Shown one piece after another: positions 5,288-9,933 of a stretch of DNA of 32,000 nucleotides (position 1 is the stretch's first letter; every line of letters starts with the position of its first letter). The notes beneath the pieces were generated by a model that made no database searches, was not told the origin of the DNA, and was given only the letters and a program-made list of their open reading frames with translations. This DNA comes from Candidatus Heimdallarchaeota archaeon (GTDB lineage: Archaea; Asgardarchaeota; Heimdallarchaeia; Heimdallarchaeales; Kariarchaeaceae): positions 239,078-271,077 of the forward strand of contig JASBSB010000004.1 of assembly GCA_030149205.1 (NCBI GenBank), written 5' to 3'. The position numbers were made by a program, and so were the translations under genes.

Positions 5288-6322
5288 TTATATTACTACC
5301 TTGGAAGCGTCTACGATGCCAAATGTGTCTTTTGCACCTTCAACCAAAGATCTGATTTGTGATCCAGTGAATGTGGGGTGCTTTGCCCATGCAAGAGCAG
5401 CGACTCCAGCAACGTGAGGTGTAGCCATTGAGGTACCAGAAATAGTATTGTAAGTACCACCGAGCCATGTAGATTCTACGTTGACACCAGGTGCAAGGAT
5501 TGTTTCTCCTCTGTTAGAGAACCATGCGATAGCGTTAGAGCTATCAACTGCACCTACTTTGATGACTCCAGGATATGCTGCGGGGTAGCTGGGGGAAGGT
5601 GCAGCATCATTTCCTGTTGCAGCAACTACAACAACGTTGTAAGCAAGTGCATGGTTGATAGCATTCTGCAGCTCTACTGTTCCAGAAGGACCACCAAGAG
5701 ACATTGAGATGACATCAGCATCATCAGCAGTTCCAGGGATACCATCTGGCCCATTAGTTGCCATGGTAATAGACTGTGCGATAGCAGAGTAAGAACCTGA
5801 TCCACTGTCATCAAGCCCCTTAAAGATGTAAAAGTTGACTTGTGGAGCTACACCAACAACGCCAAAGGTGTTGTCAAGTGCACCAATAGTCCCAGCCACG
5901 TGTGTACCGTGACCATTTCCATCCAAGCAAGGTGCTGGATTAACAGTTGTACAGGCTAAGTTAGCAGGTGTGTTGCCTTGATAGAAGCTGTGTCCCCAAA
6001 GGAATTTTCCAGCAAGATCTGGATGATTATAATCCAAACCAGTGTCTATTATAGCAACTTTTATTCCACTTTCATCAACAGCAGCTGCTGCGGCAGGTGC
6101 ATTGATCCTTGCGATACCCCAAGGAACTACCTGACCAGAAGGTGGTGGTGGCGGTGGTGGTGGTGGAGGTGCAGGAGCACCGTCATCACAGTTACCATCA
6201 CACAAAAGCGACACTTGATTATTCTGTGTATCAATTGCAGAGACTGAATTCACAAGGAATATACTTGCAATGAACAACATAACCAAGGATATTGACAAAA
6301 GTTTTAGTTTTTTGTTTGTCAT
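5288..6322 (-). CDS. Secreted S8 subtilase (Tk-subtilisin-like), copy 1, no recognisable propeptide
   Basis: Signal peptide; triad IIDTG, HGTHVAG, GTSMATPHVAG; oxyanion ATGND; 10 consecutive Pro before QVVPWGI. Confidence 0.95.
   Translation of the reverse strand: MTNKKLKLLSISLVMLFIASIFLVNSVSAIDTQNNQVSLLCDGNCDDGAPAPPPPPPPPPPSGQVVPWGIARINAPAAAAAVDESGIKVAIIDTGLDYNHPDLAGKFLWGHSFYQGNTPANLACTTVNPAPCLDGNGHGTHVAGTIGALDNTFGVVGVAPQVNFYIFKGLDDSGSGSYSAIAQSITMATNGPDGIPGTADDADVISMSLGGPSGTVELQNAINHALAYNVVVVAATGNDAAPSPSYPAAYPGVIKVGAVDSSNAIAWFSNRGETILAPGVNVESTWLGGTYNTISGTSMATPHVAGVAALAWAKHPTFTGSQIRSLVEGAKDTFGIVDASKVVI
6140..6169 (-). repeat. CCN trinucleotide tract encoding 10 Pro
   Basis: + strand agg tgg tgg tgg cgg tgg tgg tgg tgg agg. 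Confidence 0.9.
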
Positions 6323-6345
6323 TTTCGTACCTTTTTGTTTTGTGT

Positions 6346-6365
6346 TTGGGAAGAATACTTCCCAA
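6346..6365. promoter_or_regulatory. Perfect 8-bp inverted repeat near the predicted transcription start of subtilase 1
   Basis: ttgggaag-aata-cttcccaa, about 17 nt downstream of the TATA box. Confidence 0.55.
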
Positions 6366-6382
6366 TGAAGCTGATATTCGAA

Positions 6383-6410
6383 CTATAAAAGTGTTTTGCA
6401 TAAATAAAAT
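6383..6410 (-). promoter_or_regulatory. BRE/TATA promoter with upstream ATTTTATTTATGC motif (subtilase 1)
   Basis: Minus strand attttatttatgcaaaacac-ttttatag. The same arrangement lies upstream of two other genes in the cluster. Confidence 0.6.
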
Positions 6411-6646
6411 ATATTGTAAAATTTAATTTATTTTTGGAATTACTAATTTACCATTCTCTATCAAAGACAGCATTTTGTTATTTCCCAAATTTGATGTTTC
6501 AAAAATTCAAAACATTCCAATTTTTTTATACTTTTGAATTTGAAAATGGACTTGTTGAATTAAAATTAGACATAAGACCTTAAAGTCAGATAAACTATGA
6601 AAATTTAGATTTGTATATCTTGTTTATTAATGTAATTTGAATTCTT

Positions 6647-8076: not shown

Positions 8077-8217
8077 CATCAAGATTCAAAGTTAATTTTT
8101 GCAATAAATTATTCTGAAATATAAAATTATCTAATTTAGGCGACTATTGTTTATCAAAACTATGATTTTTAATTAGAATTTTCGTATTTTTGTAATTTTT
8201 CAATGCAATAATTCAAA

Positions 8218-9387
8218 CTATTCATCAGATATTTTTATTTTTGGTCTTTCAATTGTAAAAGAATTAGCATATTTTAAATACAACTGCTCTAAAGGCTTAT
8301 CCTTTAACCAACTTTCTTCTTTTCTCCAAAAGTTTCTATTGTCAAGATCAATGAAATTTCGATGCCAGATAGGGTACCGAACCGATCCAGAAGAACCCCT
8401 CGTTAAATATAAGAATTTCGGATTATCAAATACTTCACTAATAATATTAGTCATTTGACTATGGTCTTGCAAAGTAACCAAAAACCAAAAAATACTAAAA
8501 TTATTATTGAAAACTTTCAAGAATCGATTGTTCAAATATGTAAATTTAAGAAAGTTCATGAATTTTGTTTTAGTTTTTTCCTTTAGTTTCCCAAGAACCA
8601 TAATACTTAATGAGTTTTCGAGTCCTGGTCTTATATCAAGGTAAAAATTTCTAAAGATTTTATTTTTCCTGATATATTGAATTCTATCAGAGATTACCTT
8701 TCTTTTGTTATATTTGAAAAGTTTCTTTTCTGTTCTATTATAGTATTTTTGGGATTGCACGCTCTTAACCAACTCAATAATTTTTTGTTTTGGTTTCATT
8801 TCAAGCTCCCTCAAAATTATAATATCCCTAAGGGTTAATTCGTGTCTAAGAGAAGAATCAACTTGAATATCGAAATCAGATTGAACCTCAATTTGATCTT
8901 CATAAGCTTTTGTAACACTTTTGTACGTACCCCTTTCTATATCATATCTTTGATAAACGAGTTCTTTAATTTCACCTTGTAATTCTATTATATCTGCCCC
9001 CTCCAAAAAGTCTCCAAATTCGTACATCAGGTCCCTATAAATTGGTTCAGCTCCTGGTGGAGTTCTTAATTGAACAAAAAATCCATTATATCCAGTAGAT
9101 TTTGAAATAAACTGAGTATAAGGGTGAATTAACCCAAAATCTAAAACCTTGTTAGTGTTCACGTTTGAAATATTATCAGTTTTTAGAAAGTAGTATGAGT
9201 TTGAAAGCCCTAACTTGTTTTCATTAAGGTTAGCTGCTAAGGCACCATTTTCAACTAAACTAGATACATATTTTTTTGCAGTAGGTTTACTCAAGTTCAA
9301 CGCATTAGCAAGTTCTGTATATGATAAAAATGGATCATCAGTTAATAGTTTATTCAGTTTAATTTGAGTTTTTTCGCTAACTACCAT
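8218..9387 (-). CDS. Transcriptional regulator with tandem Lrp/AsnC-like winged-HTH modules
   Basis: N-terminal HTH DPFLSYTELANALNLSKPTAKKYVSSLVENG followed by a GL...Y.FL RAM-like segment. A second, degenerate HTH-like repeat LTLRDIIILRELE...KVISDRIQYIRKNKIF. Confidence 0.75.
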   Translation of the reverse strand: MVVSEKTQIKLNKLLTDDPFLSYTELANALNLSKPTAKKYVSSLVENGALAANLNENKLGLSNSYYFLKTDNISNVNTNKVLDFGLIHPYTQFISKSTGYNGFFVQLRTPPGAEPIYRDLMYEFGDFLEGADIIELQGEIKELVYQRYDIERGTYKSVTKAYEDQIEVQSDFDIQVDSSLRHELTLRDIIILRELEMKPKQKIIELVKSVQSQKYYNRTEKKLFKYNKRKVISDRIQYIRKNKIFRNFYLDIRPGLENSLSIMVLGKLKEKTKTKFMNFLKFTYLNNRFLKVFNNNFSIFWFLVTLQDHSQMTNIISEVFDNPKFLYLTRGSSGSVRYPIWHRNFIDLDNRNFWRKEESWLKDKPLEQLYLKYANSFTIERPKIKISDE

Positions 9388-9400
9388 AGGTCATCATGCT

Positions 9401-9883
9401 CTATATGAGAAATGCTTCTGCTGTAGGGGGTTTATCTGTGCTTCCTATTCCAGGAGGGTCAAAAATATAAGAATGCATCAAGTAAGGTTCACCTTGTCCT
9501 GGTTGTAAATAACCTGCAGAATATGCGGTATACCAACCAGATTCTGTTGCATGATTATATAAATTTAAAGCTAATCTATAGTGAGATTTGTATATTATAA
9601 CTTGAACGTCATACCAATATTCTAAACCGGAGGGAAGAACCAATCCAACATAGATTCCATGTTGAACTCCCGCATTAAGTTGACTTGATGAAAATCCATT
9701 CAATGTCACATTAAGTTCTATTCTGACATCTTTTGCCAATCCATTAAGATTTAAGTCTGCGTAATAGGCATTTGTTATCTCAGCGTAAACTGGGACTGTT
9801 GAAGGTGTGTAAGTTGCAGCGTTTAAGGGTACAGCCACAAACATTATCAAGAAAAAAATTGCGAAAATCGGTAATTTTCTCAT
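9401..9883 (-). CDS. Secreted hypothetical protein (160 aa)
   Basis: Signal peptide MRKLPIFAIFFLIMFVAVPLNA, a DLNLNG..D Ca-loop-like segment, a beta-rich body and C-terminal FDPPG. Its stop is 13 nt before the regulator start. Confidence 0.8.
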   Translation of the reverse strand: MRKLPIFAIFFLIMFVAVPLNAATYTPSTVPVYAEITNAYYADLNLNGLAKDVRIELNVTLNGFSSSQLNAGVQHGIYVGLVLPSGLEYWYDVQVIIYKSHYRLALNLYNHATESGWYTAYSAGYLQPGQGEPYLMHSYIFDPPGIGSTDKPPTAEAFLI

Positions 9884-9903
9884 ATTTTTAGTTCCTAAAT
9901 CGG

Positions 9904-9933
9904 ACTTAAAAAGTTTTCTGCAAAAATAAAAAT
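9904..9933 (-). promoter_or_regulatory. BRE/TATA promoter with shared motif (secreted protein + regulator operon; likely leaderless)
   Basis: Minus strand atttttatttttgcagaaaac-tttttaagt. The TATA box is about 21-28 nt before the ATG at 9883. Confidence 0.6.

Follow-up and report, generated by a model that had tools for sequence, protein, structure and literature searches.

In the RRNPP cassettes of Bacillota (Rap-Phr, PlcR-PapR, and NprR-NprX), a single transcript covers the genes for a Sec-exported product and for a cytoplasmic regulator that binds a ligand. Many diverged paralogous cassettes occur per genome, and extracellular proteases, including subtilisins, take part in maturation. Regulators of the Lrp/AsnC family, such as Pyrococcus FL11/PH0061 and Sulfolobus LysM and Ss-LrpB, are built from a dimerizing unit of about 150 aa that combines a winged helix-turn-helix (wHTH) with a RAM domain. 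Archaeal extracellular S8 proteases, such as Tk-subtilisin of Thermococcus kodakarensis and pernisine, depend on Ca for folding. To our knowledge, almost nothing is known of how Asgard archaea control secretion or sense one another. Here, we describe a cassette at positions 5288-9933 of a 32,000-nt stretch (hereafter, the window) of the genome of a Candidatus Heimdallarchaeota archaeon, which couples a new family of exported proteins (sec160), a new family of double Lrp/AsnC-type regulators (reg389), and a distinct group of propeptide-less subtilisins (sub442 and sub344). We tentatively propose, with confidence that stops a little short of an even balance, that the double Lrp binds a promoter box shared by these genes and, responding to a small ligand, controls its own operon together with the protease genes, the exported protein belonging to an extracellular protease pathway.

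The core of the cassette appears, from the arrangement of its open reading frames (ORFs), to be a two-gene operon of sec160 and reg389. An earlier note made from the sequence alone had described four same-strand genes with the first two 13 nt apart, and the ORFs bear this out, all four genes lying on the minus strand (coordinates are those of the whole window) and exactly 13 nt separating the stop codon of sec160 from the start codon of reg389. The TATA-like element of the operon promoter is located 22 nt from the start codon of sec160, so that the leader must be very short or absent. For sub442, the likely start is the ATG at 7975, though the ORF list opens at a TTG at 8038.

To place the cassette in context, 40 related genomes were surveyed, about 60 loci were fetched, and their ORFs were classified with jackhmmer. 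The sec160 family is present in 2-9 copies per related genome, and the exported-protein gene is followed by a regulator homolog at 56 of 61 loci (on the same strand in 53, with a median gap of 26 nt), most of the unpaired exceptions being contig ends. In two complete genomes, all of the clear exported-protein genes (5/5 and 6/6) are followed by the regulator, and each genome carries one additional regulator with no partner. The regulator itself reaches about 5-10 copies per genome by strong matches, and an exhaustive profile search returned 239 representatives at E ≤ 1e-30 among 1.84 billion. At three loci (L018, L019, and L020), the regulator gene converges on the exported-protein gene, with an overlap of up to 14 nt, instead of following it, and in two of these the regulator closes an operon with two large genes, one of which has wHTH signatures. 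Adjacency is preserved at these loci even without co-transcription.

Peptidase_S8 is the only recurrent Pfam family among 100 flanking ORFs, with 23 members against no more than 3 for any other family. An S8 gene is the immediate neighbor of the pair at 23 of 61 loci: at 12 it is upstream and divergent, at 4 it is upstream in the orientation of the pair, and at 7 it is downstream, also in that orientation. Clustering by sequence agrees, placing an S8 gene within two genes of the pair at 25 of about 58 loci, and the second most frequent cluster is present at 5. The chance expectation for S8 adjacency is about 0.5% (P ~2e-31), a comparison in which the related genomes are not independent samples. 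Conversely, four genomes hold 9 short S8 genes of the propeptide-less kind, at least 8 of which adjoin an exported-protein/regulator pair. In metagenome-assembled genomes (MAGs) labelled Loki- or Thorarchaeota, the order S8 gene, exported protein, regulator is seen at 3/3 loci checked, and the cultured Promethearchaeum and Lokiarchaeum have related cassettes as well. The tightest link of the exported protein is thus to the regulator and not to the protease.

A second cassette was found with tblastn on contig 7 of the same genome, where an exported protein 31% identical to sec160 and a barely alignable regulator are followed by a short S8 protease 59-70% identical to those of the window. A Rab-like GTPase is encoded near this cassette. 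The contig-7 regulator (L001, contig 7: 198000-211000; cassette at 5177-8111) presents an anomaly at its start. The reading frame that encodes its HTH is open from 5676 on but has no ATG, GTG, or TTG before 5760. An ATG at 5662, which overlaps the upstream stop codon (TAATG) and closely precedes an A5 run, is shifted by one base relative to that frame. The anomaly could be due to an error of assembly, to a frameshift, or to initiation at an ATT. The conserved gene order across Asgard genomes and the second, diverged copy in the same genome strongly support the suggestion in the earlier note that the genes form one functional module. As judged from these sequences, the cassette appears to be multi-copy and confined to Asgard archaea, with the window holding one copy.

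Both proteases match Pfam Peptidase_S8 (PF00082) well above the cut-off of 21.8 bits (sub442, E 4e-55 and 187.5 bits; sub344, E 2.8e-54 and 184.8 bits), and since they are 93% identical over 289 aa of the catalytic domain, they are recent duplicates. Tk-subtilisin is the nearest solved relative of both (E 3e-66). The catalytic triad of sub344 (D93/H138/S298) and its oxyanion residue N238 align to Tk-subtilisin and are invariant across 16 cassette-linked S8 proteases. Homology of the catalytic domain begins near residue 63, a position equivalent to residue 80 in the precursor of Tk-subtilisin and to residue 2 in mature BPN′, and only a Cys/poly-Pro linker of about 30-33 residues separates it from the signal peptide. 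No Inhibitor_I9 domain was detected in either subtilase with Pfam, and because nothing more than a signal peptide and this short linker precedes the catalytic domain, there is no I9 propeptide, as the earlier note had recognized. All 16 cassette-linked S8 proteases examined share this absence. In their linkers, a short Cys-x(3-6)-Cys loop precedes a poly-Pro stretch, with WCDLFGIGC-P8 and PPCSLFGTCD as further examples, and the linker could serve as a mini pro-segment or as a stalk. In addition, the Ca-binding insertion loop of Tk-subtilisin, GPDGVADKDGDGIIAGDPDDDAAEV, is reduced to GPDGIPGTADDADV in sub344 (residues ~190-205, window 5700-5760), making it about 11 residues shorter.

The exported protein has a Sec-type signal peptide composed of MRK, a hydrophobic core, and LNA/A. 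It matches no entry in Pfam or NCBIfam at E ≤ 0.01, including the I9 and BsuPI signatures. Its family comprises 293 matches, all of which come from MAGs labelled Heimdall-, Hod-, Thor-, Loki-, or Promethearchaeota and all of which are annotated as hypothetical, which on sequence grounds makes sec160 the apparent founder of a new, Asgard-only family. The AlphaFold2 (AF2) model of mature sec160 (~135 residues; 53-homolog alignment) is an eight-stranded beta-sandwich resembling immunoglobulin (Ig) and fibronectin type III (FnIII) domains, with a predicted local distance difference test (pLDDT) score of 87. Fold matches from Foldseek, VIA-align, and the Atlas are generic sandwiches only (GH2 Ig-like, CARDB, FnIII, and Wzt-C), and feature and shape searches of the Atlas likewise returned only generic or unnamed matches. 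The family conserves the motifs AYYxDLDxDG, which is a DxDxDG-type Ca loop, LTLPSG, (NH)ATESGWY, and an invariant FDPPG, located in the beta1-2, 3-4, 5-6, and 7-8 loops. From the strand order of the model, these four loops should meet at one tip of the sandwich and would there form a conserved binding site. After FDPPG, the family ends in a tail of 10-18 residues (15 in sec160) with the frame G-x(3-4)-[DE]-P and then variable residues. A search for longer, fused forms of sec160-type proteins found none, which is weak evidence.

The earlier note had suggested that sec160 is a folding helper or inhibitor acting in trans in place of the missing I9 propeptide, an idea that we find improbable. Every adjacent S8 protease examined is without a propeptide, and the loss of the inhibitory role of the propeptide leaves room for an inhibitor. 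Chagasin-type inhibitors act through loops at one tip of an Ig-like sandwich, and the subtilase inhibitor Ipi is also Ig-like. The Ipi structure of B. subtilis (3isy) is among the weak fold matches of sec160, where it ranks 19 (E 5e-3; template modelling score, TM-score, 0.54 for the target) amid many generic beta-sandwiches. The DxDxDG-type loop of sec160 and the shortened Ca-binding loop of the proteases also speak in its favor. However, some 60% of the exported-protein genes lack an S8 neighbor, yet nearly all have the regulator, the fold matches are generic, and neither family signature of the known inhibitors is present. Moreover, Tk-subtilisin folds without its propeptide when Ca2+ is available (PMC10580911), so that for enzymes of this type a replacement chaperone is not required. 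Complex prediction of sec160 residues 24-160 with the sub344 catalytic domain, each supplied with an alignment, gave a score of 0.00, which speaks neither for nor against binding. We rank the exported protein as a substrate or pro-form of the protease above its being an inhibitor or chaperone.

The same fold bears on the very doubtful alternative that sec160 is a surface or filament subunit or an adhesin under its own Lrp-type regulator, which the protease either matures, for example through strand exchange as in type V pili, or with which it is merely co-regulated. Lrp-type regulators classically control pili, and the Ig-like fold resembles that of archaeal surface domains such as CARDB, PKD, and SlaA-like domains. 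In the haloarchaeal tafi cluster, an Lrp/AsnC-like protein is encoded beside the subunit genes (PMC11821415), and another subfamily of the cassette regulators follows a 300-aa surface-anchored protein. Yet sec160 contains neither a membrane anchor nor a sorting signal, no solved pilin or thread subunit is among its top fold matches, and no assembly genes recur among the 100 flanking ORFs.

The regulator comprises two successive HTH+RAM units, HTH1 (aa 5-46) with RAM1 (62-136) and HTH2 (186-241) with RAM2 (245-330), followed by a C-terminal helix. Pfam HTH_24 matches aa 7-48 (E 1e-7, 31.9 bits, cut-off 21.9), and the second HTH is seen in the AF2 model (pLDDT 87, predicted TM-score 0.87, 50 homologs). 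The best Foldseek match is the fused NirDL protein 4ch7 (E 3.8e-9; TM-score of 0.49 for the query and 0.59 for the target), and many further matches are whole Lrp/FFRP chains, among them PH0061, NMB0573, and E. coli Lrp/AsnC, with target TM-scores of 0.60-0.72. The RAM domains were assigned by fold, as reg389 has no match to Pfam AsnC_trans_reg. In the alignment, the HPYT motif of RAM1 is invariant and the Arg residues of the second HTH are nearly so. The double-HTH regulator of the earlier note is thereby confirmed as a tandem Lrp/AsnC fold, in which, according to the model, two HTH+RAM units in one chain would mimic an Lrp dimer. An assignment of reg389 as a NirDL-like enzyme was considered and rejected on gene context and copy number, with no haem genes recurring among the 100 flanking ORFs of cassette loci.

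Whole-genome motif scans (3.3 Mb, 12 contigs, both strands) were used to follow up the claim of the earlier note that one motif is shared by the three cassette promoters and was not seen at the other promoters checked there. The composite TTTATTT-W(1-2)-TGC-N(7-8)-TTTTWWA occurs three times in the genome, at the three cassette promoters and nowhere else, and in this form both parts of the claim stand. The literal string ATTTTATTTWTGC does not, as it matches the site at 6384 only and one T differs at the other two sites. The short core TTTATTTWTGC has 20 occurrences in the genome, which is about the chance expectation. The boxes of sec160 and sub344 differ at no more than 5 of 25 nt, and just four further genomic 25-mers come that near to either of them. 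Among 557 TATA-anchored upstream regions profiled across the genome, there is no T-run or TGC upstream of the TATA box and only a weak, A-rich signal resembling the B recognition element (BRE), so that the box is not a generic promoter feature. It is partly dyad-symmetric, consisting of a T-run, a GC core, and an A-run, and it overlaps the BRE position at all three promoters, where a regulator would either block or recruit transcription factor B (TFB). Relaxed motif scans of the genome gave a few sites but no credible downstream genes as additional members of the regulon. From the DNA, a locus-specific box at three promoters is plausibly an element of local regulation.

The box might instead be devoid of regulatory meaning, being promoter DNA that was duplicated or gene-converted within the locus while the regulator acts elsewhere or on its own operon only. 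The near-identity of the two proteases, the absence of further credible targets, and the fact that likeness between cognate promoters is not general across loci are all in line with this account. We nevertheless regard it as very improbable, because the sec160 gene is unrelated to the proteases and yet its promoter shares at least 20 of 25 positions with theirs at an equal distance from the TATA box, and because the remainder of the protease upstream regions has diverged. The promoter cores of the contig-7 cassette are also like-for-like (AATATTTTCAAGAAATACTTATAA versus AATTTTTTTAGGAAATATTTATAA), and by eye several other loci have such matching cores, as at L050, where TTTTTTTCA is repeated at equal TATA distance.

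The leaders of the protease genes carry an additional feature. Each contains a perfect hairpin (Table 1) at a matching position, about 20 nt past the TATA box and near the expected transcript start. The two are unlike in sequence, so that the structure has been retained although both arms have changed. The leader of the contig-7 protease folds strongly as well (z -5.3). The hairpins could represent a second operator or an RNA element; an Rfam scan of the window matched no RNA family.

From the fold of the regulator and the position of the box, we infer a mechanism in which the double Lrp would bind the T-rich/GC/A-rich box directly upstream of all three TATA boxes, overlapping the BRE. Through this binding, it would co-regulate the sec160-reg389 operon and both protease genes. 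The RAM domains would respond to a small ligand, in the simplest case to amino acids or to short peptides freed by the proteases, and the exported protein would share an extracellular pathway with these enzymes.

Several points weigh against this proposal. The motif is defined by three sites only, and two of these may resemble each other by descent. The sequencing runs listed as containing this DNA are the probable source sediment metagenome and, with a small share, a vent run, with no RNA run among them. As the protease genes were duplicated recently, the informative comparison is that of the sec160 promoter with the protease promoters. At other loci, tandem cognate promoters are no more alike than non-cognate ones (p = 0.54). 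Divergent loci do have an excess of likeness between cognate promoters (p = 0.003), but this excess is due to inverted repeats and may in part be a matter of common base composition. Only about 40% of the pairs have an adjacent S8 gene, so the protease is not obligatory. The placement of the conserved sec160 loops at one tip is deduced from strand order, not from model coordinates. Finally, the RAM domains of Lrp proteins are known to bind amino acids and not peptides.

A different reading, also raised in the earlier note as a protease-processed signal, is a signal-receptor circuit comparable to Rap-Phr and PlcR-PapR. Here, the extracellular subtilase would free the variable C-terminal tail that comes after PGG-x(3-5)-[DE]P in sec160, and the re-imported peptide would be bound by the cognate RAM domains to switch the promoters. 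We consider this rather unlikely, while acknowledging that it accounts for the obligate pairing, which joins the exported product to a ligand-binding cytoplasmic regulator and not to a protease, and for the multi-copy (2-9 per genome), fast-diverging nature of the cassettes. The Phr peptides of Bacillus are matured by subtilisin-type proteases. Against it, sec160 is a well-folded domain of 135 residues in which four loops are strongly conserved, features that would be superfluous in a mere carrier, and AF2 makes its last six residues a confident edge strand. No peptide importer recurs among the 100 flanking ORFs, we know of no Lrp-family protein that binds a peptide, and the suggested cut sites have Pro at P1 or P1′, which subtilisins disfavor.

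A sister subfamily of the regulator lends this reading indirect support. This double-Lrp subfamily of about 460 aa, seen in at least nine genomes from a related genus, is preceded by a small gene for an exported repeat protein. The protein has a signal peptide and 2-7 tandem units, such as GPVEDEPIG-xxx-PGGA, in which a variable core lies between conserved flanks. This architecture resembles, at the sequence level, that of a multi-copy peptide precursor. The tails of the sec160 family share the PGG...[DE]P frame with the repeat units, one tail reading PPGGSGDEPIGG. The repeat-peptide genes are located about 350-400 nt upstream of the ~460-aa double-Lrp gene, and at L082 a gene for a solute-binding protein is divergent from the repeat gene. 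A further conserved double-Lrp subfamily (L077-L081 and L084) has no sec160-type partner. In five of these six loci, it is preceded by a gene for a 300-aa exported protein that combines a signal peptide, a Pro/Thr linker, and a C-terminal anchor, and it sits beside uvrB/uvrC and converges on a MacB-like ABC transporter. The exception is L077, where a thioredoxin is encoded upstream. A broader form of the circuit, in which Asgard archaea would run many parallel systems of cell-to-cell or self-sensing, each with a pro-form or repeat precursor cut by a subtilase and a peptide read by a double Lrp, and would have arrived at these independently of RRNPP, strikes us as unlikely.

Beside the cassette, the plus strand of the window (3964-4944) encodes a secreted, C-terminally anchored protein with signatures of S1/P1 nuclease and Zn phospholipase C. 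Given this gene, the neighborhood of the cassette may be a small island of extracellular hydrolases.

Table 1. Positions of the cassette genes, their promoter and leader elements, and the related repeat genes (positions are those of the window unless a locus is named).
Feature	Position	Strand	Description
sec160	9401..9883	-	ORF; exported 160-aa protein
reg389	8218..9387	-	ORF; cytoplasmic double Lrp/AsnC-type protein, 389 aa
sub442	6647..7975	-	Secreted S8 subtilase, 442 aa, with Big_7 Ig-like insert
sub344	5288..6322	-	Secreted S8 subtilase, 344 aa
sec160-reg389 operon promoter	9906..9930	-	Box TTTATTTTTGCAGAAAAC, then TATA-like TTTTTAA
sub442 promoter	8048..8074	-	Box TTTATTTTTTGCGCAAATAG, then TTTTTAA; contains perfect palindrome TTTGCGCAAA
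sub344 promoter	6384..6408	-	Box TTTATTTATGCAAAACAC, then TTTTATA
sub442 leader palindrome/hairpin	8012..8026	-	AGGGAT-TAC-ATCCCT; ~20 nt after TATA; leader minimum free energy -17.1 kcal/mol, z -2.4
sub344 leader palindrome/hairpin	6346..6365	-	TTGGGAAG-TATT-CTTCCCAA; minimum free energy -11.3 kcal/mol, z -2.2
Protease N-terminal linkers	6140-6235 and 7750-7890	-	sub344 CDGNCDDG-P10; sub442 CDGECD/poly-Pro
Repeat-peptide gene	L082 6605-7033; also L085, L088, L089, L091, L092, L094, L095		14-18-residue units, e.g. GPVEDEPIGAMLPGGA

The S8, Lrp, and Ig-like superfamilies are all known, whereas the obligate pairing, the new family of exported proteins, and the association with propeptide-less subtilases have not been described. 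Searches of the literature gave no paper on an exported-protein/double-Lrp/subtilase cassette, in agreement with the statement in the earlier note that no system with this layout had been described. We classify the cassette as a form of local Lrp-type regulation of secreted proteases. At the least, it would constitute a regulon specific to this lineage that serves extracellular proteolysis, a process at the center of the peptide-fermenting way of life that has been proposed for Asgard archaea. At the most, if the peptide-signaling reading were true, it would be the first peptide signal-and-receptor system in archaea, and it would be found in the closest prokaryotic relatives of eukaryotes. The cassette is also a source of natural subtilisins that need no prodomain to fold and to remain under control. 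Because its components are all small, soluble proteins, in vitro tests of the key claims are possible without culturing the organism.

Compared with the RRNPP cassettes, the Asgard cassette would be alike in logic only, without homology. The RRNPP receptor is built of tetratricopeptide repeats (TPR) and the pro-peptide has 40-60 residues, whereas the cassette has a double Lrp/AsnC fold and a folded, Ig-like domain of 135 residues, with no Opp-type importer linked to it. With the Lrp/AsnC regulators, the cassette shares the wHTH+RAM unit and probably also the binding of AT-rich, partly dyad-symmetric boxes near the BRE/TATA and the sensing of small molecules. It differs in that two units with differing HTHs are fused within about 380 aa, and in having the invariant HPYT, a C-terminal extension, and an exported-product gene that almost always precedes the regulator. 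NirDL/AhbAB sirohaem decarboxylase is the best structural match and has the same fused tandem Lrp-like fold, but it is a haem d1/haem b synthesis enzyme whose single-copy gene lies among haem genes, whereas the cassette regulators are many, diverged, and located beside genes for secreted proteins, and they retain canonical HTH residues. In relation to Tk-subtilisin and pernisine, the window enzymes are likewise archaeal extracellular S8 proteases, although they are without the I9 propeptide and, relative to Tk-subtilisin, have the shortened Ca-binding insertion loop. Stand-alone subtilase inhibitors, represented by Ipi/BsuPI of B. subtilis and the I9-like SUB1 inhibitor of Plasmodium (PMC6993865), resemble sec160 in being small, separately encoded, and potentially able to control a subtilase without a classical prodomain. 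Ipi is an Ig-like sandwich, as sec160 is predicted to be, though this likeness is generic; sec160 differs from both inhibitor families in sequence signature, and its gene is tied to that of the regulator more than to that of the protease.

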